12,923 nucleotides of DNA from positions 1-12,923 of the IMG/VR virus record IMGVR_UViG_2534681651_000004; one strand, given 5' to 3'. The notes beneath the pieces were generated by a model, which was given only the letters and a program-made list of their open reading frames with translations, did not search any database and had not been told where the DNA came from. A program made the position numbers and the translations under genes. Positions 1 through 12,923 of the stretch are shown in pieces (the stretch's first letter is position 1; each line of letters starts with the position of its first letter). The DNA comes from a virus (Duplodnaviria; Heunggongvirae; Uroviricota; Caudoviricetes).

Positions 1-337
1 CTCGCTTTCAGCACCTGTCGTTTCCTTTCTTTTCAGAGGGTATTTTAAATAAAAACATTAAGTTATGACGAAGAAGAACGGAAACGCCTTAAACCGGAAA
101 ATTTTCATAAATAGCGAAAACACGCGAGGTCGCCGCCCCGTAACCTGTCGGATCGCCGGAAAGGACCCGCAAAATGATAATAATTATCATCTACATGTCA
201 CAACGTGCATCTACGCCATCAAACCACGTCAAATAATCAATTATGACGCAGGTATCGTATTAATTGATCTGCATCAACTTAACGTAAAAACAACTTCAGA
301 CAATACAAATCAGCGACACTGAATACAGGGCAACCTC

Positions 338-571
338 ATGTCAACGAAGAACAGAACCCGCAGAACAACAACCCGCAACATCCGCTTTCCTAACCAAATG
401 ATTGAACAAATTAACATCGCTCTTGTTCAAAAAGGGTCCGGGAATTTCTCAGCCTGGGTCATTGAAGCCTGCCGCCGGAGACTGTGCTCAGAAAAAAGAG
501 TTTCGCCTGAAGCAAACAAAGAAAAGAGTGACATTACTGAATTGCTCAGAAAACAGGTTAGACCAGATTGA
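338..571 (+). CDS. Small basic protein, possible ribbon-helix-helix DNA-binding protein (YnfO-like by position)
   Basis: 77-aa ORF with a basic N-terminus (TKNRTRRTTTRN) followed by IRFPNQMIEQINIALVQKGSGNFSAWVIEACRRRL, which looks like a beta-strand plus two helices (RHH). Weak Shine-Dalgarno (SD). Sits immediately upstream of the YdfO-like gene, as ynfO does in Qin. Confidence 0.45.
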   Translation: MSTKNRTRRTTTRNIRFPNQMIEQINIALVQKGSGNFSAWVIEACRRRLCSEKRVSPEANKEKSDITELLRKQVRPD

Positions 572-628
572 AGCAATTTAGATAATCGTGCAGACTACGC
601 CCCCTCATATCACATGGAAGGTACTACA

Positions 629-1039
629 ATGGCTCAGGTTGCCATTTTTAAACAAATATTCGATAAAGTGCGAAATAATTTAAACTATCACTGGTTTTAT
701 TCTGAACTAAAACGTCACAATGTCTCACATTACATTTACTATTTAGCCACAGAGAATATTCATCTTGTTCTTGAAAACGATAATACGGTTTTAATAAAAG
801 GACAGGGTAAGGTTGTAAATGTAAGATTTTCAAAAAATAAATGCCTTATAGAAGCCACCTTAAAAGGATTCAAATCAGGAGAGTTATCATTTTACGAATA
901 CAGGAAAAATCTTGCTACAGCAGGGGTTTTCAGATGGATTACAAATATCCACGAAAACAAAAGGTATTACTATACCTTTGATAATTCATTACTCTTTACT
1001 GAGAACATTCAGAACACTACACAAATATTTCCGCACTAA
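629..1039 (+). CDS. YdfO-like prophage protein (DUF1398 family, recalled)
   Basis: ORF track gives 614..1039; the ATG at 629 is preferred because GGAAGG lies about 8 nt upstream. AT-rich coding sequence. The [14 protein letters not shown]... N-terminus is recalled as Qin YdfO-like. Confidence 0.6.
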
Positions 1040-1325
1040 ATCATAACGTCCGGTTTCTTCCGTGCCAGAACCGGACTCGCTGGCATGATGAAATATGTGT
1101 ACCCGGTAACCCCGGTGTGCATCGTTTTTGATTATTCCCGCACACTCGCGCAGAAGGAGTTCCCCGTCGGGCTACGGTCTCTGTTAATACGGGAATACGG
1201 CGACGATACAGCGCATGATGTGTCAGGCTTGAATACCTTTATCCTTTAAAAGGGATATCAGTTAAGTTATCCCGTGTAGGGTATAAGCCATTATCAAGCC
1301 CACCCGTAGATAGGCTTTGTAATGG

Positions 1326-1583
1326 CTACTTCGCTTTTGCTTCCGCTCGCTTACGCCGGCGCTCTTCTTTCCTCTCGGCTTTTGCCATGTCCATGAATGC
1401 CTGCATGATCGAGTTCCGCATCATGTAGCTAACAAAGTGATGATTGACACAGCCGTTGAGGCGCAGCTGCTCGCCAAACTCATCCACCGAGGCCAATGCT
1501 TCCATCATGCCCTTCTCGCCTTTCATGAACTCTGAGAAGTCGCGCCCCGCTCTGGAGGCGCATTCAATAACACGATCACTCAT
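1326..1583 (-). CDS. Hypothetical 85-aa protein with a lysine/arginine-rich C-terminus, translationally coupled to the KilA-N gene
   Basis: Its ATG (1583..1581) overlaps the TGA stop of the upstream ORF (1582..1580) as ATGA. C-terminus is KAERKEERRRKRAEAKAK. Confidence 0.5.
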   Translation of the reverse strand: MSDRVIECASRAGRDFSEFMKGEKGMMEALASVDEFGEQLRLNGCVNHHFVSYMMRNSIMQAFMDMAKAERKEERRRKRAEAKAK

Positions 1584-2077
1584 CCCGGAAGCCCGGGGAT
1601 CGTAATCTGCAGCTGGTTAGCCAGGGAGTTAATCTCAGCGACCAACACTGGCTTCGTATAGCGCCATGCCGCCAGCCCTTGTCCGCAGAAGCTCGCCATA
1701 TCTTTTTTCTGATCAAACTCATGACACTTCATATTGAGCTGTGCACTTAAGCTGTTGCGATGCTGAAGTTCTCCGGTGAAGTAGTCATCCAGGACTTTAT
1801 AGGCTGCATATTTAAATCCGGGGTTTAGCCATGCTGCATAATCATAAGCAACAAACTTCCCGCCATATGTTCCACCGTGTACACCGCGCTCAGTAAAAAC
1901 CACAGATTCGTGGTTTTTCTCCAGCTCGGCTAAGAACTCTTTGGTCTGCTTGTTTCGCAGGTAGTGGTACGGAGATTCAGATTCACTTTTACCACTGGCT
2001 TTCCACATATCAGTGAGGCAGATCATGCCATCTTCACCGATACGAATTGGTTGATTGAAGAGGGTTAATGATTTCAT
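1580..2077 (-). CDS. KilA-N domain protein (antirepressor/Bro-N-like)
   Basis: 165 aa. Motifs ICLTDMWKASGK ... LRNKQTKEFLAELEK ... HGGTYGGKFVAYDYAAWLNPGF match the KilA-N pattern (ligand-binding N-terminus, GGTW.H core, WL.P.F). Confidence 0.7.
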   Translation of the reverse strand: MKSLTLFNQPIRIGEDGMICLTDMWKASGKSESESPYHYLRNKQTKEFLAELEKNHESVVFTERGVHGGTYGGKFVAYDYAAWLNPGFKYAAYKVLDDYFTGELQHRNSLSAQLNMKCHEFDQKKDMASFCGQGLAAWRYTKPVLVAEINSLANQLQITIPGLPG

Positions 2078-2190
2078 AGCGTGTACCTACTCTTTGAAAT
2101 GAACCTTTGCCGCACAGGAAACCAGCCCACCGAGGCTCGCCAGCACTAACTGGTATCCTCAAAGGCCCATTCCAAAGGGGCAGGTTCGGT

Positions 2191-2219
2191 GTAAAAAAAA
2201 CATGCGTTGCGGTACGCAT
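2191..2219 (-). terminator. Rho-independent terminator (second of a tandem pair after Rz)
   Basis: Minus strand reads ATGCGT-ACCGCA-ACGCAT followed by GTTTTTTTT. Confidence 0.6.
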
Positions 2220-2224
2220 TTATT

Positions 2225-2249
2225 GCAAAAAAGCCCCGCATCGCGAGGC
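2225..2249 (-). terminator. Rho-independent terminator at the end of the lysis operon
   Basis: Minus strand reads GCCTCGC-GAT-GCGGGGC (7-bp stem with one G.U pair) followed by TTTTTTG, about 30 nt downstream of the Rz stop. Confidence 0.65.
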
Positions 2250-2281
2250 TCATTAAATGGACTTTGTGATTTGCAAAAAAA

Positions 2282-2734
2282 TTATTTCAGGCATTGCGTC
2301 CTGATGTACTCCTGCAGGTAGTTAACCTGCGCGGTTATCCTGTCGATTCCACTTCGGAGACGGTAATAATTGAGTTCAGCATCTGCTGTAAGTCTTGGGC
2401 TTTCTCCATCGCCCATGCTGCTGGCTCCGGTCTTTGACTTTGCACATGAGGCGGCGACTTGCAGCCGCTTACGCCCAGCAGAAACATCATCACGGAGACT
2501 TTCGATAGTCGCATTAGCATCAGCAAGCTCCTTTGTATATCTGGCATCGAGTTCTGCTACGTCACGTTGACGCTTCTGCATGTCAGCGATGATGGATGTG
2601 GCTTTGTCGCGCTGTTCTTTGTAGGTCATGGCGTTATCACGGTAATGATTAACAGCCCATGACAGGCAGACGATGATGCAGATAACCAGAGCATAAATAA
2701 TCACGGCAACTCTGCTCACTGCTCTATCCCCCAA
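2282..2734 (-). CDS. Rz: Rz i-spanin (inner-membrane spanin subunit)
   Basis: Strong similarity to lambda Rz ([34 protein letters not shown]; N-terminal TM helix, coiled-coil body). The likely true start is the GTG at 2719, which overlaps the endolysin TGA stop as GTGA; the ORF-track start at 2734 is a TTG. Confidence 0.85.
2335..2520 (-). CDS. Rz1: Rz1 o-spanin (outer-membrane lipoprotein spanin), embedded in the +1 frame of Rz
   Basis: Out-of-frame ORF lying wholly inside Rz. Signal peptide [20 protein letters not shown] with lipobox VSGC, then a proline-rich mature part ([16 protein letters not shown]). Start is chosen at an internal Met of the 70-aa track ORF; the exact start is uncertain. 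Confidence 0.7.
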
Positions 2735-3249
2735 CAGGCTAATGCGCTCTCCTGATCACGACGAATAACCTGACCGTAACAGTTATTTGAACGAAGGCGG
2801 CAATCGCGCCCCCTGTCCTTAATCCACCAGCGAATCGCCTCGCAGGCACCTTTACGATCACCTGCATTCAGCCGCTTATAAAATGTCGACGGAAAACACT
2901 TAGCGGGGCCAATGTTATAGGGACAAAATGACGCGATACCCGCTTTTTGTGGTTCGGTCAGTGTTACTTTAATATTGCGATCCACCCATGCCAGCGCCTT
3001 ATCACGCTCAATGGCATTAACCTGATCGCATTTTTCCTTCGTCAGTGTCATGCCCGGAATAACAGGTTTACCATCTACTATCGTGGCACCGCGACAGATG
3101 GTCCATATGCCGGAACCATCGCGGTATGCCGTAGTGTGGTTACCCTCTTTTTCATCCAGAAACTGGTCAAGTATCTCAGGAGCAGATGCGCCTGCTCCAA
3201 TCAGCGCCAGAACGGCCGCTGACAGGCCGTATTTGATTTTTGCGTTCAT
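2716..3249 (-). CDS. R: SAR endolysin (phage-21 R-type lysozyme, T4-lysozyme fold)
   Basis: 177 aa. N-terminal weakly hydrophobic Gly/Ala-rich signal-anchor-release segment ([18 protein letters not shown]). Catalytic E-x8-D-x5-T triad in [16 protein letters not shown]. Confidence 0.9.
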
Positions 3250-3354
3250 GGATATTTATCAGGATTTATCGGTTTCTGAACCCTGGATATGTTTATCTGC
3301 CCCGGCCTGTTGAATCAGGCGGGGAAAAGGTAAATACAATCAAGAGGATTATTT

Positions 3355-3627
3355 ATGGACAATAACACCATTTCTCTACAGGAGTTGCTCGACTGCATTT
3401 CCAGGCTTCGGGATGATGTAAATGCCCTCACTGTTGCATTTTCATATCTGGCCTTATCAATTCCCAGAGAACAAATGCAACCAACACTGGCATCGCTCCT
3501 GCTTGAATCACGCAACCCCAAATGGTCCCAGGAACAACAAAATTCTTTTAAGTGGCTGGCGGCATTACTGGAAGAAAAATATGCTGGTAAAATTACCATT
3601 TCGGTGGAGTCTTCAGAAAATCAGTAA
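3355..3627 (+). CDS. Hypothetical 90-aa protein encoded antisense to the lysis operon
   Basis: Good SD (AAGAGGA, 7 nt spacer) before the ATG at 3355. Protein-like composition with a predicted helical character. Its 3' end overlaps the 3' end of the minus-strand 3593..3937 gene by 35 bp. Confidence 0.45.
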   Translation: MDNNTISLQELLDCISRLRDDVNALTVAFSYLALSIPREQMQPTLASLLLESRNPKWSQEQQNSFKWLAALLEEKYAGKITISVESSENQ

Positions 3628-3937
3628 TTCTTCCTGGTAGCTTTCCTTTGTAGGTTATCCACACATTCTGCGCCTCTAAAATTACGGGGCGCTTTTCCGG
3701 CGACTGCTCATCCCCTTCACATAACCCGGCAGCAACATCCAGGAAGACCTGTCTGATGCTCCTTCTGGCTGCAGACTCATAAAACTCCAGCGCAGCACCT
3801 TCAACACGGTTCAGCGAGATGTCCAGGTCAAAAATTTCACCGTCAAAGCGTTTTTTGTCTTGTAATGCTACAGTTACCGCAACTTTATTCTCAAAATTGC
3901 GGATCCCTTTCACAATCAGTTCATAGTCTTGGGTCAT
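3593..3937 (-). CDS. Small phage protein inserted between holin and endolysin (YdfR/DUF1327-like by position)
   Basis: 114-aa ORF with an ATG start; a GAGGAG SD lies inside the end of the holin gene. Occupies the slot between S and R where Qin-type prophages carry ydfR. Confidence 0.6.
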   Translation of the reverse strand: MTQDYELIVKGIRNFENKVAVTVALQDKKRFDGEIFDLDISLNRVEGAALEFYESAARRSIRQVFLDVAAGLCEGDEQSPEKRPVILEAQNVWITYKGKLPGRITDFLKTPPKW

Positions 3938-3941
3938 TATA

Positions 3942-4157
3942 TTACTCTCCTCTCGCAGCCTTTCTTCTGTCTTCTCTGATTTTGAAGTACAGATTTGTCA
4001 GATAAGTCAAAAAACCCAGAACCAGGCTACCCAGCACACCTATTGCTGCCCACTGTGAGGGCGTGACTTTATCGAGCAGCTGTAAAAACCAGTAGCCAGC
4101 ACTGCCTGCGGAGGTGCCGTAGGCAATGCCTGTTGAAATTTTGTCCATGGATTTCAT
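3942..4157 (-). CDS. S: Pinholin (S21-type class II holin with dual start)
   Basis: [26 protein letters not shown]...[30 protein letters not shown] is near-identical to recalled phage-21 S21. Dual-start motif M-K-S-M, with a strong GGAGGTGA SD before the ATG at 4157. The ORF-track 90-aa version (start 4214) is probably over-extended. Confidence 0.85.
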
Positions 4158-4254
4158 AGCCTCACCTCCGCACGGAACGGATGGCATAGTTATTATGTGT
4201 AGGCTTTCAGACACATCAATCAGAGCCTTAATTGATATATATGCTGGAGACGAT

Positions 4255-4283
4255 GCAATATAAAAAGCTCGCCGTAGCGAGCT
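4255..4283 (-). terminator. Rho-independent terminator closing the lipoprotein cargo block, upstream of the holin
   Basis: Minus strand reads AGCTCGC-TACG-GCGAGCT followed by TTTTTATATT. Confidence 0.65.
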
Positions 4284-4408
4284 AATAAAATGTATTTCTC
4301 TGATATTATGTTTATTTGTATTAGCTCAGACTTGACATCACAGGTTTCGTATATAGAACATCATCAAATCTGTCAGTTTGCTATGAATGAGATATAGTAA
4401 TTGAAGAG

Positions 4409-4804
4409 CTAACCTCGCATGTCAAAGCCAGATTTCTGAAAATCTCTGTAGACTTCCGGATTGTTGAAGGCCGGAAATTTGGCTTTATGAGCTGCGGACT
4501 TTATCGCTTCGCAATAGGCTTTATCACCGTTACTGGTAGATATTTTTAACGCCGTGCCATCCTGAGAGAATTCCATATGCAACCTGCATTTTTTCCCTTT
4601 CCAGTTATGCGGCTCATCAAGTTGGGCATTAATTGCAGCTCTGATTCCCCGCGCTTGCGCCCCCCATTCATCCTGATCATCCCAGCGTCCTGAACTGCAA
4701 CTACCCGTAGCAGTAGTTTTGTGGCAATCTGAAGGGTGTAAAGGTGTGCATCCCGCAACAAAACCGACCCCAAAAGTCAACATAACGATTTTCTTTAATC
4801 CCAC
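4409..4804 (-). CDS. Lipoprotein with a TolA C-terminal (domain III)-like domain, divergent paralog
   Basis: GTG start with a GAGGAG SD. Signal peptide plus lipobox VAGC (MGLKKIVMLTFGVGFVAGC). C-terminal region ...KGKKCRLHMEFSQDGTALKISTSNGDKAYCEAIKSAAHKAKFPAFNNPEVYRDFQKSGFDMRG shares the two Cys and the PEVY..FQ motif with the neighbouring paralog and with TolA domain III. Confidence 0.75.
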   Translation of the reverse strand: MGLKKIVMLTFGVGFVAGCTPLHPSDCHKTTATGSCSSGRWDDQDEWGAQARGIRAAINAQLDEPHNWKGKKCRLHMEFSQDGTALKISTSNGDKAYCEAIKSAAHKAKFPAFNNPEVYRDFQKSGFDMRG

Positions 4805-4954
4805 TTCTTGCTCCTCAATCCATTAAAATCTCAGCAATAGTAGTTGTTACGTCCGCCACTGGCTCAGAGCTGACTATCCGCTAAATTTAGCTCAGTGCCG
4901 TAGCTGTGTCAGAACAAACCTAAGCCGAAACCGTTTATTACAAAACAATAAATA

Positions 4955-5383
4955 TCAGGGTTTAAAATCCAGCACCCCATTTTGAAATACTTTATATACT
5001 TCCGGCGAAGGGGGGGCAGGTATATCAGCATTCTTTATCGCATTCATCGCTTCACGACATAAATCGAGGTCTCCACTTTCTCTTTTAACCTCCAGTAGAA
5101 GGCCATTCGGGGCCATATGCATTCTCAGTGTACACTCTTTTCCTGAATACTTACTCGCATCCCCGAACTGTTTTTCGATGGCGCTCTTGATTTGATGGGC
5201 ATACAGACGGATATCCTCACTAACATCAGAAGTACGTTCAGATGAACTCACATACTGTGTCTCTATTGCTTTATCGGAGTAATATGATGTACGGTCATGA
5301 TAATTTGTCGATACAGCATCAGTGCACCCGATAATAATCCCACTAATAATCAACATAAGAATTGATGCGCTACGAAAACCCAT
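4955..5383 (-). CDS. Lipoprotein with a TolA C-terminal (domain III)-like domain
   Basis: ATG start with a GAGGA SD. Signal peptide plus lipobox IIGC (MGFRSASILMLIISGIIIGC). C-terminus YAHQIKSAIEKQFGDASKYSGKECTLRMHMAPNGLLLEVKRESGDLDLCREAMNAIKNADIPAPPSPEVYKVFQNGVLDFKP closely matches the recalled E. coli TolA C-terminus (YAGQIKSAIESKFYDASSYAGKTCTLRIKLAPDGMLLDIKPEGGDPALCQAALAAAKLAKIPKPPSQAVYEVFKNAPLDFKP). Confidence 0.8.
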   Translation of the reverse strand: MGFRSASILMLIISGIIIGCTDAVSTNYHDRTSYYSDKAIETQYVSSSERTSDVSEDIRLYAHQIKSAIEKQFGDASKYSGKECTLRMHMAPNGLLLEVKRESGDLDLCREAMNAIKNADIPAPPSPEVYKVFQNGVLDFKP

Positions 5384-5916
5384 TTTTCCTCACATATGTC
5401 ATATAGTAAAGGATTATATATACCGTTGTTTTGGACGCTCAAACAGCGAATCAGATCAAATAAAACGCACATTTGTTAACATTTACACAAAGGCTGCGTG
5501 GAATATTCTGAAAGAATATCCATAATGTGGAGAGAATCTATTGAAGTGCATGGTGCCGGGTGCCTCCCGGTGAATTCAGTACCAGCACCTGAATCCGCGA
5601 TTATCCCATATACCTACTCGCTGATTGCCCCTCCGCACAGGGGGATTCACCATGCCAGTTTCTTTTAACAAACTCCCCGCAAACCAGAGAACAGTCAACC
5701 GCCTGAATTGTGAAGTATTTAAAAATTTCTCCCGCTAACTGATACCCGGCTAACAGTCTGGCGTTTTCTTTTTCAGCAACGGGAAAGCAACAACCACCAC
5801 ACCCGCCACCAGCACACCGTCAGCCAGCACTGACATTATCCGGCTGCTGCAATGCCATTCACAAAAACAGTAAGCAATCACTTTTTACCGTAACAGGTGA
5901 TAATCCAGATATGTAT

Positions 5917-6270
5917 CTACCCCAGATGAGTAATCCGAAGTTCATCCATACCACAGGTCCTGGCTATTCTGTTGTACTCCTGAACAAGAGCAAATAATTC
6001 TGAATTAGCAACCATGAACTCATCGCAAACCCTCTGTATAGCATCACTATTCAGAATAATAACGTCTCTTCCCGAAAGACGATCAGGAGCACAGAACAAA
6101 ACTGTCAAACGGCTGAAGGCCTTTGCTCGTGCTGCATTGACTATATCAATACGCTGCCTAAGGATGAAACACCCCGACGCCTCATCAATATTCACTCTAC
6201 CCACACCATATGAATGATAAATATTTAATGCTGAAAAAACCATTAGACCGTATAACAAACACTCAATCAA
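5917..6270 (-). CDS. Hypothetical protein (possible decayed gene)
   Basis: 117-aa ORF with a TTG start and no convincing SD; the first internal ATG (6243) also lacks an SD. Followed by about 400 bp without long ORFs. Confidence 0.35.
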   Translation of the reverse strand: MIECLLYGLMVFSALNIYHSYGVGRVNIDEASGCFILRQRIDIVNAARAKAFSRLTVLFCAPDRLSGRDVIILNSDAIQRVCDEFMVANSELFALVQEYNRIARTCGMDELRITHLG

Positions 6271-6380
6271 TACTTAACAGAACTTTTATTTTTGACAAAC
6301 ATATTATGTTTTCAACAATATCCTGAGCCAGGTATATTCCAGTATAAGGCTCTGCCGGAAGGAATCTGGAAGAATGAATA

Positions 6381-6457
6381 TGGCGCGCTGTACTGGATTC
6401 GAACCAGTGACCGATTGCTTAGAAGGCAATTGCTCTGTCCGGCTGAGCTAACAACGC
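6381..6457 (-). tRNA. tRNA-Arg (anticodon UCU, reads AGA), phage argO-like
   Basis: Reverse complement GCGTTGTTAGCTCAGCCGGACAGAGCAATTGCCTTCTAAGCAATCGGTCACTGGTTCGAATCCAGTACAGCGCGCCA folds as a cloverleaf: 7-bp acceptor stem, anticodon stem ATTGC/GCAAT, loop CTTCTAA, T-loop TTCGAATCC, encoded CCA. Confidence 0.85.
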
Positions 6458-6470
6458 TGAATACCGATAA

Positions 6471-6550
6471 TGGACCGCCATCGGGGACCCGCCCCCGCAC
6501 CAACAACCCTGTTATCGTGTCGTCTGCTCTTCCTGATAAGCTAATGGCGG
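6471..6550 (-). pseudogene. Degenerate tRNA-like element (possible argN-like remnant)
   Basis: Reverse complement CCGCCATTAGCTTATCAGGAAGAGC...CGGGGGCGGGTCCCCGATGGCGGTCCA has a perfect 7-bp acceptor stem (CCGCCAT/ATGGCGG), a D-arm (GCTT...GAGC), a T-stem and 3' TCCA. It lacks a canonical anticodon arm and has a non-consensus 6-nt T-loop. Confidence 0.45.
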
Positions 6551-6557
6551 TTTGTGA

Positions 6558-6633
6558 TGGTGGCCCTTGCTGGATTTGAACCAGCGACCTGGCGATTATG
6601 AGTCGCTCGCTCTCACCACTGAGCTAAAGGGCC
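6558..6633 (-). tRNA. tRNA-Ile2 (anticodon CAU, lysidine type; ileX/ileZ-like)
   Basis: Reverse complement GGCCCTTTAGCTCAGTGGTGAGAGCGAGCGACTCATAATCGCCAGGTCGCTGGTTCAAATCCAGCAAGGGCCACCA closely resembles recalled E. coli ileX, including the CUCAUAA anticodon loop, and has an encoded CCA. Confidence 0.8.
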
Positions 6634-6668
6634 GGGAGCAGAATAATAACGGTCCGTAATTAATTCCG

Positions 6669-6696
6669 CAATAAAAAACCCGCTCGGCGGCGGGTT
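6669..6696 (-). terminator. tR'-like rho-independent terminator downstream of pR'
   Basis: Minus strand reads AACCCGC-CGCCGA-GCGGGTT followed by TTTTTTAT, between the Q stop and the tRNA cluster. Confidence 0.7.
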
Positions 6697-6735
6697 GTAG
6701 AAACTCTTCTAACGTCAGGCATAAAAAGCCCATCA

Positions 6736-6771
6736 TTATGACGAATTTACCACAGATTCCGGAAAAATCAA
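6736..6771 (-). promoter_or_regulatory. pR'-like late promoter with probable qut/pause region
   Basis: Minus strand has TTGATT, a 16-nt spacer and TAAATT immediately after the Q stop. A -10-like CATAAT in the initial transcribed region fits a sigma70-dependent pause as in lambda pR'. Confidence 0.55.
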
Positions 6772-6776
6772 CCTTG

Positions 6777-7598
6777 TTACCTAGTTACCTTTTTTAACTG
6801 CCGCTCAGCCCATGCTTCTTCAATATCAAACCGGGTCACCAGCGCATCATAGAATTTCTTAACTGTTTTTTCCCATGACGCGCGTGTTATCTGGTTTGTC
6901 ACCTCGCATATAGCATTAAATGCCTCCGTTGATGGTAGTCTTTCATAGCCACGACCACCACAACGCTGGCAGTCTCTGATAACAGGCATACCACGTTTTA
7001 CCGACTCTTCACGGTGAATGGCGACACCACGCCCACGGCAATCCTTACAGGCGGTGGAAACCTCACCCTTTCCGCCACACTCCGGACAGGCAACTTTTAC
7101 CACCTCCCTGACTTTTTTCCATTCTTCCCAGTAAGACGGATACACACCTTTCGTACACTTTGCCCATACCGGCGGCTTACCATCCGGATACTGGACCTTG
7201 TTTGTAAAAACTACGCTTTCAATAAATTTTTCCCCATAGCAACAAGGGCACTGCTTTTTACTCGCTGCGCTGCGGGCATAATCCTCAAAAGCGTACGAAG
7301 CCATAATGCGCATCACTACCGGTTTTATTTCTGCCGGAAGTTTTCTCAACGCCGCCACACGATCGCACCGACTGAGTGCATAATCTGCCAGTAATTCTGT
7401 TGCCCGCGCCCTGTCATTCATACTGATGCCCATTTTCCCCAGGAACGCAGAAAACCCCATCTCAGCCCGATTCTGTGTCATGCCCTGCGCGGCCATCACA
7501 TCAGTGATACTCAGCGCATCTTTTGACGTTGAAGCCGATGCATCGGTCAGGCAAGGGGATTTTGGGGAGTAGTATTTCGGTAAATCTTCCAGTTTCAT
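6777..7598 (-). CDS. Q: Late antitermination protein Q (Phage_antitermQ family)
   Basis: 273 aa with multiple CxxC zinc-ribbon motifs (CPCCYGEK, CPECGGKG, CKDCRGRG, CQRCGGRG). Sits directly upstream of pR'/tR'. Its ATG overlaps the RusA TGA stop as ATGA. Confidence 0.8.
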   Translation of the reverse strand: MKLEDLPKYYSPKSPCLTDASASTSKDALSITDVMAAQGMTQNRAEMGFSAFLGKMGISMNDRARATELLADYALSRCDRVAALRKLPAEIKPVVMRIMASYAFEDYARSAASKKQCPCCYGEKFIESVVFTNKVQYPDGKPPVWAKCTKGVYPSYWEEWKKVREVVKVACPECGGKGEVSTACKDCRGRGVAIHREESVKRGMPVIRDCQRCGGRGYERLPSTEAFNAICEVTNQITRASWEKTVKKFYDALVTRFDIEEAWAERQLKKVTR

Positions 7599-7969
7599 TT
7601 TTTGACCTGCTCTTCATGCATTATGGGGTAAATCTTCACCCCCATACGTCCACCAGATACTGGCTGACCACGAACGATATTGATTTCATCAAACTGCTCA
7701 TCGTCCATTAACACTCCCGCATGCGTCAGCGCATCCAGCGGTGCTTTCAGGATATTGTCCAGGTCGCGACGACGCTTATCCGGTGGCTCTGCAATCACCT
7801 TTATCGCCAGCCTTCCGGACAGGCTTAATTTCAGCCGCTGCTGGCGAACAATAAGCGCCACAGCACGGCGATAACGCTTTCCCTCCTCCGAGATAAAATA
7901 TGTGCTGCCACGGCGTCGCCAGTAAGTGTTCACCGTCGGCGGGTAAGGTAAAACCAAATCTATGAGCAT
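7595..7969 (-). CDS. rusA: RusA Holliday-junction resolvase
   Basis: 124 aa. LPYPPTVNTYWRRRG ... PDKRRRDLDNILKAPLDALTHAGVLMDDEQ matches recalled RusA (PWPPS.N.YY / PDRRRRDLDNL.KA.FDALT). Confidence 0.85.
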   Translation of the reverse strand: MLIDLVLPYPPTVNTYWRRRGSTYFISEEGKRYRRAVALIVRQQRLKLSLSGRLAIKVIAEPPDKRRRDLDNILKAPLDALTHAGVLMDDEQFDEINIVRGQPVSGGRMGVKIYPIMHEEQVKK

Positions 7970-7981
7970 CAGTCACCTCTT

Positions 7982-9031
7982 TTACCCAAGCACGCCAGTT
8001 GCAAAGGCGTGATCAAGAAAACGAAAAATTAAATCAACCTGAGAACCATGCTTTTCTTCGAACGCCAGCGGATCCGCATGAAGCTCGTTGTGATGCTCCC
8101 GACACAGCGGTAGCGTGAAAATATCGTGAGATTTTGTCCCCATTCCGCCCTGACCATGACCAATCAGGTGATGGGGATCGTCGGTTGGCTTACCACAACA
8201 CGCACACGGCTGTGTCTTCACCCAGCGTGTGTATTTCTCGTTAACCCAGCGGCGACGTTTAGGTCGTTTCATAAAAGATTCCGGAGACTCAGGATCAACG
8301 GCAATGCTGACCACCGTCTTTTCCTGTGGTGGGTTCTGTTGCTGGTGGGCGTGAGGCAGCGGCGCAAGATTTTTTGTGCGCTGTTTCAGTATGCTGGTGG
8401 CGGTCTGCTCTCCCGGTACGATGTCGCTTTCACGGTACATTGAGCGGATTTTTTCCGCACGCAACCCCAGCGAACGACGTAATACCGCTTCCGGTAGCGC
8501 GTCCGCCACCTGATTGCGGACCGCCCACCAGGATAATTCAGCCAGAGATAATTCACGCTCCTGCGTACCGCTTATTGCGTGACCGATGACGTCAATCATC
8601 CATGCTGACAGGTTTTGATGAGCAAGTTGCTCGAGTGATTCGGATGTCTGGTCACGCAGCTGGTTGTCGCAGTGCCAGCACAACACCATTGCGCCGGTAC
8701 CATAACGGTGAATGACGGTTTCGCTGTGATGATAATCGCCGTGTGGCCACTGGCAGGATTTAATATGGCGCAACAGCCAGTCAGACAATGCACCAGCACC
8801 ACAAGCAGCACGAATCACCCGTGCGTTACTGAAAAACGGCAGCAATGTTTTGTCTTCCACCAGCGGCTGGCGAGCGGCAGGAACGACCCCGGACGGCAGA
8901 TTACGCATGCTTTTCGGTTCCGGCTCCACCAGTAACCGGGTATTGTGGAATACCGGCATGGATTCACGGCCCGGCTTAACGATCACCAGCCCGAGTTCCG
9001 GTACCAGAACAGGTCGAAGTAATACCCGCAC
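7982..9031 (-). CDS. DUF968-family protein (YdfU-like) with a C-terminal Cys/His HNH-like motif
   Basis: 349 aa with a GTG start preceded by GGAGG. C-terminus CACCGKPTDDPHHLIGHGQGGMGTKSHDIFTLPLCREHHNELH. Positioned before rusA and Q as ydfU is in Qin. Confidence 0.7.
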   Translation of the reverse strand: MRVLLRPVLVPELGLVIVKPGRESMPVFHNTRLLVEPEPKSMRNLPSGVVPAARQPLVEDKTLLPFFSNARVIRAACGAGALSDWLLRHIKSCQWPHGDYHHSETVIHRYGTGAMVLCWHCDNQLRDQTSESLEQLAHQNLSAWMIDVIGHAISGTQERELSLAELSWWAVRNQVADALPEAVLRRSLGLRAEKIRSMYRESDIVPGEQTATSILKQRTKNLAPLPHAHQQQNPPQEKTVVSIAVDPESPESFMKRPKRRRWVNEKYTRWVKTQPCACCGKPTDDPHHLIGHGQGGMGTKSHDIFTLPLCREHHNELHADPLAFEEKHGSQVDLIFRFLDHAFATGVLG

Positions 9032-9032
9032 G

Positions 9033-9422
9033 TTACCTCCAGATGCGTTGCTGGAATGTGTGGGACGGACGCGGTGGGCGTTCGGAGTAAGGCAATCTGA
9101 CTGAGATTATCCAGTGACGGTAGTCGAGGCTAAGGGCTTTTTTAACCTCGTATCCGCGCCTGCGGTAACACTGAATTATCCATTCAGCCTGCTCTTCAGT
9201 GCATGGTGGATGCTGGAACCAGTCCGATTTGAATGCATGAAAACGCCGTCCGCACCTGCTGGCAAAGACGGCAGAATCATCAGAATTGTGTAATTTGGTA
9301 TCGTGCGCCATCGGTTGTCTCTGCTGGCGCAGCAGGTGCCAGTTGTTCAGGCTGGCGTATAAAGTATAAATAAACTGGTTCCAGTGTAAAGCCCCTACAT
9401 TAATGGAATAAAAGTCAAACAA
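9033..9422 (-). CDS. Hypothetical nin-region protein (start uncertain)
   Basis: ORF-track start is a TTG with no SD; the first ATG is at 9311 (92 aa). Stop lies 1 nt before the start of the downstream DUF968 gene. Confidence 0.45.
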   Translation of the reverse strand: MFDFYSINVGALHWNQFIYTLYASLNNWHLLRQQRQPMAHDTKLHNSDDSAVFASRCGRRFHAFKSDWFQHPPCTEEQAEWIIQCYRRRGYEVKKALSLDYRHWIISVRLPYSERPPRPSHTFQQRIWR

Positions 9423-9576
9423 CAGATTGTTGGGATAAACACAACGCTTATTATTAAAAGCGATTAGATAAATTAAATTTTAATGTTATGCAATTTTACC
9501 AGATCACCATAACATCTCGTTTGAAACCACCGAAACAACAACCATATCAATATTGATTATGTTAAAGTGAGTAAAT

Positions 9577-9663
9577 ATGGAAAACAACAAATCTGCACAT
9601 TACGCTCCTTTTTTATCTGTGATACTTTTTGTTTTATGCTGTGTGTGGGCATTATTTTTATAA
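9577..9663 (+). CDS. Candidate small hydrophobic peptide (28 aa), convergent with hok
   Basis: MENNKSAHYAPFLSVILFVLCCVWALFL has a polar N-terminus and a 17-residue hydrophobic stretch. Modest SD (GTGAG), AT-rich upstream region. Below the ORF-track size cutoff. Confidence 0.3.
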   Translation: MENNKSAHYAPFLSVILFVLCCVWALFL

Positions 9664-9671
9664 AAATATTT

Positions 9672-9701
9672 ACAGATAAAATAAACCCGCCGAAGCGGGT
9701 T
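9672..9701 (-). terminator. Rho-independent terminator of the hok transcript
   Basis: Minus strand reads AACCCGC-TTCG-GCGGGTT followed by TATTTTAT, about 70 nt after the hok stop. Confidence 0.7.
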
Positions 9702-9769
9702 AAGTGCGGGTGCATTGAGGATGCCTGACACATCAGAGGTGGCGAGGGATTTCTCCCTCGCCAAGTCTC

Positions 9770-9925
9770 TTACTCCTCAGGTTCGTAGACTGTGAAGACA
9801 GCGACCTCCGTCTGGCCGGTTCGGATTCGTACCTCGCAGAGGTCTTTCCTCGTTACCAGTGCCGTCACTATGACGGTTAAACAGATGACGATCAGGGCGA
9901 TTAACATCGCCTTTTGCTGCTTCAT
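9770..9925 (-). CDS. hok: Hok-family type I toxin (HokD/RelF-like)
   Basis: MKQQKAMLIALIVICLTVIVTALVTRKDLCEVRIRTGQTEVAVFTVYEPEE is near-identical to recalled HokD. AAGGAG SD upstream of the ATG at 9925. The 70-aa ORF-track version (start 9982) is an in-frame upstream extension, possibly mok-like. Confidence 0.9.
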   Translation of the reverse strand: MKQQKAMLIALIVICLTVIVTALVTRKDLCEVRIRTGQTEVAVFTVYEPEE

Positions 9926-10136
9926 AGCCTGCTTCTCCTTGCCTTTCGGCACGTAAGAGGCTAACCTAGATTTGCCGTTCATAGATTGAGCCTCAGATTA
10001 ATGTTAAGCGTCTTGCAGGACGCGTAATGTTAACTGGGGCTTTTCTCTATCTGCCTTTGGTGTTCATGCCTGAGACAGATAGCCTCAAGCACCCGCAGCC
10101 ATTCTACTTAACTCCCGTCACCTGGCCAATATAAAA

Positions 10137-10226
10137 TCAATCAGAAAGGCGATCCATAAGAACAACAGCAAGACAATAAATTGCCATTACAGCTGCAATA
10201 GCCAGCGCACATTTGAGAACCAGCAC
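10137..10226 (-). CDS. Candidate small hydrophobic peptide (29 aa) with a strong SD
   Basis: AGGAGG, a 5-nt spacer, then a GTG start; encodes MLVLKCALAIAAVMAIYCLAVVLMDRLSD. Not on the ORF track (below size cutoff). A 17-bp perfect palindrome lies about 50 bp upstream. Confidence 0.3.
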   Translation of the reverse strand: MLVLKCALAIAAVMAIYCLAVVLMDRLSD

Positions 10227-10275
10227 GACAACCTCCTGTATTGGACGTACACCAGTCCTGATAAATATGAGGCTC

Positions 10276-10292
10276 TCTCATCATTGATGAGA
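10276..10292. promoter_or_regulatory. 17-bp perfect palindrome TCTCATCATTGATGAGA (candidate operator)
   Basis: Perfect 8-1-8 inverted repeat between the AT-rich 345-aa gene and the hok unit, upstream of the small ORF 10137..10226. Confidence 0.4.
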
Positions 10293-10511
10293 TACAACTA
10301 TTGGGTATAGTTTCTGTGATTTTGTTCTGTAGAAATGGAACACAACAACCAGTAACCACCAGCGATTCTTTAAATACGCCAAATCCGACGCAAGCTAACC
10401 TTCTAGTCCGCTTTGGGCGAAGACCGGACGTTCGATAGGTGTGAACTAGTAACTTTAAAAACATTTAATTACCAGTAAAAAAACAAGAATATACTATCAC
10501 TTTTCCAATTT

Positions 10512-11549
10512 TTAATTACCCTTATCAATTTTAAGAAATACATTTCCAATCTCATCAGAATAATCCTGTATTATTTTTGAAATGACGGCATGATCAATGG
10601 TTGGTTTTAAGAATAAAAGTGTCACAGTAATCTGCATCAAACTAATAGCAGTAGCATGGGCTGGATCAGCCATTCCTGAATCACTTTGCCCGACCAATAA
10701 TATATCATCACCAGTTTCACAGAGACCAAGCCTATTTCTCATTGCCTTGGAACCGGTGTGTACATTCTGACTCGCCCACTTATAATAAGGGCGCATGTGT
10801 TCTAACTGAACATCTTTCTCAATAGCTCCAAACCCCACTTTATTATGGTTAGGGAAAATATAAGATGCCCACCCATAATTATCTGCATATTTTTTGCCGT
10901 ATTTTTTTATTAATAGATCAAATTGAACTTTACACTCAGCTATTTCTTCAATAGTTGGACCTTTTGCTTCTAACCGGTGCTCGTACTTTTTGTGTTCCAA
11001 CATTCCAGTATATGAATCAACCACTTCATGGTAGTAAAAGCGCTCAGCACACTCTTTTCCATGCTTTGCTATAAACATAGCTGTGGCTGCTACCTCATGA
11101 AGTGCTCGCCATCTCGCTTGGGCAGCATCTGCAAATCCATTCTTTAAGAGACACAAAATTTCGTTGGCGATGTGGCAAGCTCTTGCGTGATGCCGAACGA
11201 CTAAATCAAAAACCACATCCTCTTCAGAGGCAGCTTGTGGTCTATAAGAACGATTGAACTCTTCACCGGACTCCGTGCATATCACTATAAGTGTTTCGAG
11301 CAAATCAAAAGCCTCTGCCCATCTTGAAATATTTCTCTCAACAAATTCATCACAAAGAGAACGATGTTCTCTAAGCATTGCATTGGCCGAGCCAATAAGA
11401 GATTTTTTAACGACAATGGCTATTTTGGGAATTAGGTTATTAATTTCTTTTTCGATATCAGCGTCACCAGATAAATCAAGCCTCTCTTTTAAAAGGCTGT
11501 CTATGTGCTCAAGCAAAATATTATGAAAAGTATCCATGTCATATCTCAA
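10512..11549 (-). CDS. AT-rich foreign hypothetical protein, candidate defence/abortive-infection protein (possible HEPN-like Rx4-6H motifs)
   Basis: 345-aa ORF with an ATG start, visibly lower GC than its neighbours and flanked by AT-rich intergenic DNA. Contains RHHARACH and RWRALH (Rx4-6H-type) motifs. No confident family assignment from memory. Confidence 0.7.
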   Translation of the reverse strand: MRYDMDTFHNILLEHIDSLLKERLDLSGDADIEKEINNLIPKIAIVVKKSLIGSANAMLREHRSLCDEFVERNISRWAEAFDLLETLIVICTESGEEFNRSYRPQAASEEDVVFDLVVRHHARACHIANEILCLLKNGFADAAQARWRALHEVAATAMFIAKHGKECAERFYYHEVVDSYTGMLEHKKYEHRLEAKGPTIEEIAECKVQFDLLIKKYGKKYADNYGWASYIFPNHNKVGFGAIEKDVQLEHMRPYYKWASQNVHTGSKAMRNRLGLCETGDDILLVGQSDSGMADPAHATAISLMQITVTLLFLKPTIDHAVISKIIQDYSDEIGNVFLKIDKGN

Positions 11550-11642
11550 TAAGTTTTAAATCCATGTGGCACACCCATAATATAAAAATAAACAGCATGC
11601 CAGTCTAAGTCTGGCTATTTGTATATCATATCACCTGAAACA

Positions 11643-11671
11643 TTGACAGATGTAACCCACCAAAATATTAT
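11643..11671 (+). promoter_or_regulatory. Near-consensus sigma70 promoter on the plus strand (TTGACA-N17-TATTAT)
   Basis: TTGACA at 11643..11648, exact 17-nt spacer, TATTAT at 11666..11671. It points rightward, antisense to the 11765..12190 gene; no plus-strand ORF follows. Confidence 0.5.
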
Positions 11672-11764
11672 CAATGACCACTCTTGGCACAAAGCGAACA
11701 ACCACGCTAGCTCTACCTTGTGCCATGAAAATGTCAATGCATATCTGAACTAATGCCCTTTAAT

Positions 11765-12190
11765 CTAGTAACGTCTAAAATACCTAACATTTCCCTGATA
11801 AAATGCCATAATGCGCTGCATAACTTCGCTCTTCCGGCACTCGCGACAGATTATGTTTAGACAACTATCGTAGCGACGTATTTCTCCGTCAGGTAATGAC
11901 CAGATAAGGTCCGGATCAACCGCAGATGGTTTCTTCAGCTTTGCCCTTGAGAGCTTTTTACGGGCATTTTGCCAGTCCTTACGCGCCTGTTCAGACGGGA
12001 ATAACCCGTAACCAGAGTTGTATACATCGCCACTGGCAACCAGCTCTCTGGCCAGAACGCTCATCAGATATCTTGTTGCCCCAGTTTTAGTTTCCAGTTG
12101 TCGTAACGTCTCGCGCCCACTCTGGCGTACGAGTTCAACAACCTGCCCTTTAATTTTTTCCCGCTCTTCTTGTGTAAAAACTTTTGCCAC
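11765..12190 (-). CDS. Small hypothetical protein with a probable helix-turn-helix near the N-terminus
   Basis: 141 aa with a GTG start preceded by AGGAGGG. The segment TLRQLETKTGATRYLMSVLAREL looks like an HTH. Basic C-terminal half with CxxC (CRECR). Confidence 0.6.
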   Translation of the reverse strand: MAKVFTQEEREKIKGQVVELVRQSGRETLRQLETKTGATRYLMSVLARELVASGDVYNSGYGLFPSEQARKDWQNARKKLSRAKLKKPSAVDPDLIWSLPDGEIRRYDSCLNIICRECRKSEVMQRIMAFYQGNVRYFRRY

Positions 12191-12230
12191 AAGCCCTCCT
12201 GAAAATTACCTCATGACCAGAAATTAACAC

Positions 12231-12884
12231 TTACCCCCTGAAGCCCGGCGGAATTTCGTTATCCGGTTCAGAAATATGATTCACACAACGCTGGTTGTTC
12301 GTGCCGCTTACCGGGAGCAACCAGGGGTTCTCAAAATTCCGGTCCGGTCCAAAAAACGTCGTCGCTCGCTGAACAAATTCCGTTCCCGTTTTCCCGGTAG
12401 CCGCCAAGTATCTTGCGTAACGCCTCACGCCATCCAGCATGGCCTCTGGTGGCACCCCCTCGCGTAATCTGGCCTTCCAGGCACTGAAAGCGGATTTCTT
12501 CGGGTTTGCTCCGGCACGCAACGGGTACTCCCGCCAGACCTGTTCGAACACATCCGGATAATCCACTCGTCCCACAGACAGCCCGGTGTTTTCCGGGACT
12601 ACCCGATCGGCTTCCCGCTGAATGGCGGAATCGGCTTCAGGCTGCTGCAGTTGGTGTGATTGTTCCGGCCTTTGGGTCATCACCTGCTGCACAGCGCCCG
12701 AATCGGCTTTCAGCGCATACGCTGAATCGGCTTCCGGTGTCGTGCCTGCTGGCTGACCAGGATTGACGGTCTGAACATCCCCTGCCTGGTTCGTGGCGTT
12801 TTTTACGCCATGGACCATAGTGTTTTGATCTTCTTGATCTGTATCTTTATCTGTATCTTTATCTGTCGTGACTCGTCGTGACAT
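12231..12884 (-). CDS. Hypothetical protein, possibly the C-terminal part of a longer replication-type protein whose reading frame stays open to the window edge
   Basis: 217 aa from the ATG at 12884, but the frame has no stop through 12923, so the gene may start beyond the window. N-terminal acidic low-complexity region (TTDKDTDKDTDQEDQ; Pro/Gln/Ala-rich linker); conserved-looking C-terminal domain (VDYPDVFEQVWREYPLRAGANPKKSAFSAWKARL...). Confidence 0.6.
   Translation of the reverse strand: MSRRVTTDKDTDKDTDQEDQNTMVHGVKNATNQAGDVQTVNPGQPAGTTPEADSAYALKADSGAVQQVMTQRPEQSHQLQQPEADSAIQREADRVVPENTGLSVGRVDYPDVFEQVWREYPLRAGANPKKSAFSAWKARLREGVPPEAMLDGVRRYARYLAATGKTGTEFVQRATTFFGPDRNFENPWLLPVSGTNNQRCVNHISEPDNEIPPGFRG
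12837..12866. repeat. 12-bp tandem direct repeat (ATCTGTATCTTT, about 2.5 copies)
   Basis: atctgtatcttt atctgtatcttt atctgt; encodes the DKDTDKDTD repeat on the minus strand. Confidence 0.7.
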
Positions 12885-12913
12885 GTGCGTGACATTTCGT
12901 GATGCGCCGTGAC
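12867..12913. repeat. Iteron-like array: five CGTGAC/T hexamers at 10-11 bp spacing
   Basis: CGTGAC at 12867, 12877, 12888 and 12908, and CGTGAT at 12898, giving helical-turn periodicity. The array straddles the start of the edge ORF. Confidence 0.6.
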
Positions 12914-12923
12914 AATCGCCATT

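Follow-up and report, generated by a model that had tools for sequence, protein, structure and literature searches.

A mobile single-gene DUF5677 cassette in a cargo hotspot of Qin/Rac-type Escherichia coli prophages, a candidate anti-phage gene

Lone genes of obscure biochemistry that occupy swappable, adenine- and thymine-rich (AT-rich) loci of temperate phages, between conserved phage genes, have been described in the P2 hotspot, namely the DUF4238 gene and old/tin (PMC9122126). Here we analyse a gene that resembles them in these respects, carried on the minus strand of a 12,923-nucleotide stretch of caudoviral DNA (IMG/VR record IMGVR_UViG_2534681651_000004, positions 1 to 12,923; hereafter the window), which belongs to a Qin/Rac-type lambdoid prophage of E. 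coli. The gene encodes a protein of the DUF5677 family and lies in a slot between a ren-like gene and hok/sok. It is unrelated in sequence to its P2 counterparts, and the slots considered here are ren-hok and, in P2-like phages, gpS-gpV, whereas the P2 genes occupy the cos-proximal gpA-gpQ position. Closest in location are PDC-S33 and PDC-S39, which are likewise single-gene AT-rich cargo of similar size in exactly the same ren-hok slot; the proteins are unrelated, however, and PADLOC v2 includes PDC-S33 and PDC-S39, but not DUF5677, among its defence candidates. The exclusion morons ren and rexAB of lambda are comparable as accessory genes beside lambdoid replication genes that are expressed in the lysogen (putatively so for DUF5677), a Ren-like gene being located immediately upstream in our locus, but they share no sequence relationship with the DUF5677 gene.

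The gene thus belongs to a known kind of element, the AT-rich single-gene prophage cargo cassette, and a defence role is the best-supported reading of its function. It stands out through its conservation across phyla, its occurrence in three unrelated types of hotspot and the lack of a structural relative.

A self-contained cassette in the ren-hok slot

The cassette and its parts are as follows.

10512..11537, minus strand: coding sequence of the DUF5677 protein, with the start codon ATG at 11537..11535 and the stop codon at 10514..10512; 341 amino acids (aa), identical to RefSeq WP_000379313.1
10432..11671, minus strand: the whole single-gene cassette in the slot between the ren-like gene and hok/sok; 1,240 base pairs (bp), guanine-plus-cytosine (GC) fraction 0.371
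11538..11671, minus strand: 5' region of the cassette, which travels with the gene and contains a promoter-like element, a hairpin with a T-rich tract and a weak GAGA ribosome-binding site
10432..10511, minus strand: AT-rich 3' end of the cassette, separating the stop codon from the shared hok/sok backbone; GC 0.21 in 10465-10511

The limits of the cassette were determined using BLASTN comparisons with sister prophages that carry other cargo. On the hok side, backbone homology stops at 10420-10432 (loci L017, L019 and L022), and it resumes at 11667-11688 on the ren side. The GC of the intervening DNA, 0.371, compares to 0.483 and 0.512 in the flanks. The view of the locus as a compositional island, inserted through horizontal acquisition, hence holds, with breakpoints at approximately 10432 and 11671. 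A corresponding unit is detected in a Klebsiella lambdoid prophage, where DNA identity (76.9%) is restricted to the gene and 119 bp upstream of it, reaching window position 11656, and conservation of the 5' sequence between the copies of E. coli, Klebsiella and P2-like phages extends over some 100 bp, the promoter-like element and the hairpin included. Among 5,426 complete E. coli genomes, 72 contain the cassette, all at 99% identity or above, and roughly 2,170 others have only the approximately 90 bp adjoining the ren-like gene. Clustering of the neighbouring open reading frames (ORFs) over 49 loci revealed no conserved partner gene, the only shared families being those of the phage backbone, in agreement with the single-gene character originally predicted. 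We are therefore nearly certain that the 1.24 kb comprising the DUF5677 gene form a self-contained, horizontally mobile, single-gene cargo cassette. As in prophage morons, the insert is variable, is placed between conserved phage genes and is replaced by alternative cargo in sister phages.

The gene was initially delineated as an ORF at 10512-11549 of 345 aa. The ORF is real, but it is located on the minus strand, and the 345 codons are counted from a TTG at 11549 that is not retained among homologous loci. The ATG at 11537 is instead kept in all seven aligned loci and is also the RefSeq start of the identical protein, and because of this conservation and the RefSeq assignment we take it as the true start, yielding 341 aa rather than 345.

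In composition, the gene (GC 0.386; GC at third codon positions, GC3, 0.31) differs from the neighbouring prophage genes (GC 0.47-0.555; GC3 0.46-0.56), so that the calculation supports the proposed AT-richness relative to the flanking phage genes. The adjoining intergenic DNA is AT-rich as well, with GC values of 0.21 for 10465-10511 and 0.37 for 11538-11764, and a consensus scan of 9400-12300 returned 15 promoter-like matches compared to 7.1 +/- 2.2 in shuffles, in accordance with the AT-rich, promoter-bearing borders that had been described. The lowest-GC 1,026-bp stretch of the window begins at position 21, so the gene is not its sole AT-rich stretch. In 12 of 12 hosts the DUF5677 gene is AT-richer than the rest of the locus, by 3 to 20 GC points, and it behaves as if a foreign composition were retained wherever it lands.

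The 5' region may provide the cassette with its own promoter, considering a promoter-like element identified in the consensus scan (TAGACT-17-TATATT, 11607->11579). We note that a hairpin, GCCAG-ACTTAGA-CTGGC (11599-11615), is located 60 bp upstream of the start codon, where it overlaps the promoter-like -35 element and precedes a T-rich tract; in our own reading of the alignment, both of its arms are changed in the Klebsiella copy, yet the pairing apparently persists. This hairpin could serve as an insulator, a terminator or an operator. A structured leader RNA upstream of the gene was also considered and was not significant (z -1.1), with Rfam detecting only sok.

The DUF5677 family, its conserved residues and its predicted fold

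The protein matches Pfam DUF5677 (PF18928; InterPro IPR043733) in residues 112-274, scoring 118 bits (E 5.8e-34) where the gathering cutoff is 27.1, all 61 aligned relatives match PF18928 as well, and the identical protein is labelled 'DUF5677 domain-containing protein' in RefSeq. The Pfam model spans only the middle of the protein, whereas the conserved unit observed here is the full protein of approximately 340 aa; phrog_27456, a PHROG of unknown function, is matched over the full length (E 4e-210), and NCBIfam yields no match. A literature search on the accession, the Pfam identifier and the DUF5677 family found no paper giving a function. Hence, the original suggestion that the protein may be undescribed is right for its function but not for the family, which has both a Pfam entry (PF18928) and a RefSeq label.

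The family is large and broadly distributed. A word-indexed search retrieved 553 full-length homologs of approximately 341 aa that are 59-89% identical, with hosts in Enterobacterales, Vibrionaceae, Colwellia, Halomonadaceae, Francisellaceae, Sulfurovum, Nitrospiraceae and Desulfuromonas. An exhaustive profile search extends the family to 3,566 clusters at 50% identity, of which 1,614 have E-values smaller than 1e-30. Variants include forms of approximately 420 aa with an N-terminal extension, rare members with transmembrane N-terminal regions, and one fusion to NTPase_1, which adjoins HNH, SNF2/NOV_C and DUF1156 genes. Informative domain fusions were sought in the longer relatives, and apart from the NTPase_1 case only unannotated or transmembrane N-terminal extensions were recovered.

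Alignment of the 61 diverse members uncovers a dense pattern of conservation. Invariant are W73, L130, G134, D137, A139, R142, W143, R144, L146, E148, W223, H260, G283 and G288, and a further set is retained in at least 90% of members, namely F65, L80, E89, H117, L131, H147, G214, A224, E240, Y252 and A255, as well as S285, P292, S299, L300, Q302 and T304 in the C-terminal part. The resulting signature, comprising G134, D137, R142-W-R144, H147-E148, W223, H260 and G283/S285/G288, is complete in the window protein, each position being invariant or at least 95% conserved among the 61 members. This abundance of invariant Arg, His, Asp, Glu, Trp and Gly residues suggests that the protein catalyses a reaction or binds a specific ligand and is not a scaffold; most likely it is an enzyme.

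Separately, a 280-aa protein of E. coli FORC064 (L023:2798-3637) that RefSeq labels DUF5677 is located in the equivalent slot, beside an integrase pseudogene and a Septu PtuA/HNH pair. It is without the RWRxLHE signature and has in common only an H-x2-YY-x7-H stretch. We considered it as a second arrival of DUF5677 in the slot and did not retain it as such, the relationship being unconfirmed (BLASTP not significant; hhalign probability 4%).

An AlphaFold2 model based on the 61-sequence alignment has a predicted local distance difference test score (pLDDT) of 92.1 and a predicted template-modelling score (pTM) of 0.87, compared to a mediocre pLDDT of 70 for an earlier model from a shallow alignment. 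It consists of 13 helices and no strands, with a long four-helix bundle in the N-terminal part. The Foldseek comparison foreseen in the original prediction was run against the Protein Data Bank (PDB) and yielded nothing at E<=0.001, the best E-value being 0.28. Equally, one single-sequence and two profile searches of the PDB detected no meaningful solved relative. The structures named for the bundle, i.e. talin, a ROP variant and de novo designed bundles, represent a non-specific resemblance. Judged from the predicted model and these PDB searches, the overall architecture is without a detectable characterised structural relative.

Defence as the favoured function, and its alternatives

The strongest indications of function come from the places where the gene is found. 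Elsewhere in E. coli prophages, the ren-hok slot contains PDC-S33 (with a RelA/SpoT domain; E 5e-119), PDC-S39 (DUF4209; E 8e-103), Septu PtuA (E 2e-165) together with an HNH gene, QueH and other hypothetical genes, and in K-12 it contains relBE, ydfV and flxA. The ren-hok interval of Qin/Rac-type E. coli prophages is thus a cargo hotspot with sharp homology breakpoints, for which a literature search found no describing paper. The notion that this prophage region is a hotspot for anti-phage systems is in agreement with the known and candidate defence systems that the slot holds in other prophages.

The gene recurs in other types of mobile elements. P2-like phages carry it between gpS and gpV; both orientations occur there, as do two distant alleles (84-86% and 42% identity), and in Yersinia phage vB_YenM_56.17 this slot is occupied by a retron-type reverse transcriptase and a regulator. 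In the same interval of Yersinia phage vB_YenM_31.17 we observe a 354-aa hypothetical gene on the opposite strand. In Enterobacter, the DUF5677 gene is found at the cargo end of a satellite with integrase, AlpA and D5 primase genes. In the Enterobacter hormaechei satellite (about 9200-11530 of L008-L011) it is followed by a gene for a 777-779-aa protein, the sole clear feature of which is a C-terminal SEC-C motif, and which may represent additional cargo or a local partner. A Providencia rettgeri island comprises, in this order, an integrase, DUF5677, a 545-aa protein with a cytidine-deaminase domain and a 2,147-aa protein with faint NACHT matches; this integrase-bound region looks like a compact defence island. 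SPbeta-like Bacillus phages, including phage SPR, carry DUF5677 genes of 370-373 aa. In two Bacillus subtilis loci (L081 and L082), the gene is part of a block of small unknown genes and has the arbitrium genes aimR and aimP directly downstream of it.

PADLOC models are strongly matched by many of the 124 ORFs that neighbour the gene at 22 diverse chromosomal loci, the models including QatC (8e-96), QatD (1e-91), PDC-M36A (2e-249), PDC-S35, PDC-S68, SoFic, DrmD, AriA, mad2/3 and restriction-modification methyltransferases, this being a raw count without a matched background. Toxin-antitoxin genes (YefM/YoeB, RHH/ParE and HipA) are neighbours in other genomes. An independent preprint places DUF5677 with the domains that show the strongest enrichment close to defence-associated serine recombinases of Bacillota (adjusted P 2e-92, N = 25). 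This recurrence in hotspots and defence-rich neighbourhoods favours a role in defence, and the location of the gene makes it modestly probable that we are dealing with a prophage-borne anti-phage gene, i.e. one with a conflict or defence function. The original designation as a candidate single-gene defence or abortive-infection (Abi) module is therefore reasonable with respect to location, considering the swap slot and the lack of a partner, but no named Abi family is matched.

We propose that the protein would operate as follows. The cassette would provide an anti-phage gene of the superinfection-immunity or abortive-infection type, expressed from its own 5' region. The most conserved polar and aromatic residues, namely D137, R142, W143, R144, H147 and E148 of the G-x2-D-x4-RWRxLHE element together with E89, H117, W223, E240, Y252, H260 and the loop G283-x-S285-x2-G288, may make up one site. 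The site would then bind and process a phosphate-bearing substrate, such as RNA or a nucleotide. Catalysis directed at RNA or nucleotides by such an Arg/His-rich site is the chemistry that we favour, although we regard it as possible yet doubtful.

In its broadest form, the proposal is that DUF5677 represents a new and widespread family of single-protein anti-phage immunity enzymes, with thousands of clusters in Proteobacteria, Desulfobacterota, Nitrospirota, Chloroflexota, Bacillota and others. The centre of these enzymes, D-x4-RWRxLHE together with a distal His and the GxSxxG loop, would differ in mechanism from that of HEPN proteins and of all defence effectors catalogued to date, and a 1.2-kb promoter-plus-gene unit would shuttle among phages of the lambdoid, P2-like and SPbeta-like types as well as satellites and integrase islands. 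We put this forward as speculative, and likelier to fail than to hold. Should DUF5677 genes serve in defence, this would assign a function to an orphan family of approximately 3,566 clusters (at 50% identity) missed by current defence annotation tools, and it would add two surveyable cargo slots to the map of phage immune hotspots, namely the ren-hok interval of Qin/Rac-type lambdoid prophages and the gpS-gpV interval of P2-like phages. Defence hotspots contain many uncharacterised candidates; the present protein is small and acts alone, and with its confident model and short list of invariant residues it lends itself readily to genetic and biochemical study. If the gene does not serve in defence, the case would be a warning that hotspot occupancy and an Rx4-6H string are weak evidence on their own.

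Several observations weigh against a defence function. None of the 5,027 defence-protein models of PADLOC-DB v2.0.0 is matched at E<=1 by the window protein. In a preprint, an Enterococcus faecalis DUF5677 ORF was constitutively expressed and challenged with a small panel of Enterococcus phages, and it was not among the five protective ORFs; the homolog tested there is distant. The ren-hok slot accommodates non-defence cargo too, such as QueH and relBE, making location suggestive and not diagnostic, and some chromosomal copies have ordinary metabolic neighbours. The neighbourhood count described above is raw, and the sequence, profile and Foldseek searches of the PDB returned no homology or fold that supports a particular chemistry.

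One alternative is that the protein is a moron enzyme unconnected to defence that benefits the lysogen or the phage otherwise, acting for instance in counter-defence, nucleic-acid or tRNA modification or repair, or stress metabolism, and residing in slots that merely tolerate insertions. The presence of QueH, a tRNA-queuosine enzyme, and of relBE in the same slot is compatible with this, as are the ordinary neighbours of several chromosomal copies and the Enterococcus homolog, which was tolerated under constitutive expression and did not protect. Moreover, approximately 60% identity across phyla represents a strong constraint, which in our reading fits an enzyme acting on a fixed substrate better than a protein in co-evolution with phages. 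We nonetheless rate this alternative as rather unlikely, since the gene recurs in three independent types of mobile-element hotspots where the alternative cargo consists mainly of defence systems, resides in defence-rich neighbourhoods, is enriched in recombinase-associated defence contigs, and has no conserved metabolic operon partner in the 49 loci.

A more specific identity was originally proposed for the protein, that of a HEPN RNase with two Rx4-6H motifs and of an Abi protein of the AbiD/AbiF class. In its full form, this would be a metal-independent RNase of the HEPN superfamily acting as a single-gene Abi protein of the AbiD/AbiF/AbiV type, with catalysis resting on the R142-x4-H147 motif, which a dimer interface would probably complete. 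Defence systems frequently make use of HEPN domains, the families of which are known for their marked divergence (the latter PMC3710099), and the protein shares with the HEPN defence RNases AbiV, AbiD/AbiF-type, RnlA/LsoA and PrrC/RloC (PMC3710099) an all-alpha nature, a four-helix-bundle core (here the long N-terminal bundle of the model), a conserved R-x4-H and a defence-type context. Both motifs are indeed present, as RHHARACH (115-122) and RWRALH (142-147), but two matches are what chance yields for this composition (shuffle mean 2.11; P(>=2) = 0.65). The second motif is conserved at the right spacing, with R142 in 61 of 61 and H147 in 59 of 61 diverse members. The first is not a conserved Rx4-6H, as position 122 is Gln in 37 of 61; what is conserved there is [RK]115-x-H117-x-[RK]119.

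In HEPN proteins, the Arg is followed by a polar residue (N/D/H), and the motif either closes helix 3 or falls in the loop leading to helix 4, its His being exposed (PMC3710099). In the DUF5677 family, by contrast, the residue following the conserved Arg is W143 in all 61 members, and in the model the 142-147 motif begins six residues into the 54-residue helix 136-189, just after loop 133-135, i.e. near the start of a long helix. An upstream conserved E-x3-[KR] was not seen when the alignment was read by eye. A HEPN domain is moreover only about one third as large as this protein, the C-terminal half of which is conserved too (W223, H260 and the GxSxxG loop). None of the 61 diverse members matches a Pfam HEPN or Abi_2 family at E<=10, and the window protein matches no named Abi family, AbiD/AbiF and Abi_2 included, at E<=1; Abi_alpha is matched by one of the 61 relatives at E 0.0025, which is not significant after 61 tests. 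Foldseek returned nothing in the PDB at its threshold. We do not place the protein in the HEPN superfamily, on the grounds of motif count, Trp143, helix position and the lack of profile matches in all 61 members, and the AbiD/AbiF assignment is likewise unsupported, given that neither Abi_2 nor any PADLOC v2 model is matched. That the protein is a divergent HEPN RNase after all is improbable, and a HEPN-like Arg/His acid-base chemistry at its site is similarly so.

Alternatively, the four-helix bundle may support a metal-dependent hydrolase or oxidoreductase, with H117, H147, E148, H260, E89 and E240 as ligands, which would be compatible with a role in defence. Several conserved His, Glu and Asp residues are located on bundle helices of the predicted model; however, the structural matches are no better than those to non-metal bundles, and no sequence-profile match to any metalloprotein family was obtained, rendering a metalloenzyme quite unlikely. 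Finally, it is highly improbable that the gene is a self-stabilising addiction element, i.e. a solitary toxin or fused toxin-antitoxin persisting by post-segregational killing, for despite its position next to hok/sok, its YefM/YoeB, RHH/ParE and HipA neighbours elsewhere and the occupation of the same slot by the fused toxin-antitoxin-like RelA/SpoT protein PDC-S33, there is no conserved antitoxin partner in the 49 loci, the Enterococcus homolog was maintained under constitutive expression, and the model is a single all-alpha chain without an internal two-domain toxin/antitoxin architecture.

The prophage setting and the flanks of the slot

The window is 100% identical to DNA of strain AST215, in which the prophage is integrated beside a tRNA-Ser gene and mtfA. 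Along the minus strand, the order is replisome organiser, DUF977/ren-like gene, DUF5677 gene, sok-type RNA, hokD, DUF968, RusA, Q antiterminator, two tRNAs and lysis genes. The two flanks of the slot are outside the cassette.

11765..12190, minus strand: gene of the DUF977 or Ren-like exclusion protein, upstream flank of the slot; DUF977 in RefSeq, and matched by phrog_142 'Ren-like exclusion protein' at E 4e-45
9770..10094, minus strand: hokD with the sok-type antisense/leader element, downstream flank of the slot; hokD in RefSeq, RF01794 in Rfam

The toxin gene hokD of RefSeq occupies 9770-9925, confirming that the DUF5677 gene sits beside hok, and the sok-type RNA element extends over 9920-10094 (Rfam RF01794 sok, 110 bits, E 1.6e-25). 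In Qin of K-12, relB-relE are located directly upstream of hokD, and on that side K-12 shares only window positions 9683-9939. The statement that the gene replaces relBE is hence loosely right, but the slot is a swap site for many kinds of cargo.

Between the DUF5677 gene and sok there is an unannotated 107-aa ORF (10141-10464, minus strand), which is Cys/Gly-rich and most likely spurious. A two-gene system composed of DUF5677 and this ORF was considered and discarded, as the ORF falls within the shared backbone, is disrupted in sister prophages, matches no family and bears no relation to the ORF that follows the gene in Klebsiella.

Downstream of the Q antiterminator gene, the prophage carries two minus-strand tRNAs at 6381-6457 and 6558-6633, a tRNA-Arg(tct) and a tRNA with a CAT anticodon, the latter assigned to Met by ARAGORN and to Ile by RefSeq. 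Between these tRNAs and the lysis genes, two minus-strand genes (4409-4783 and 4955-5383) are named TolA or TolA C-terminal-domain in RefSeq, and such phage-borne TolA-domain copies could act as decoys against Tol-dependent phages or colicins.

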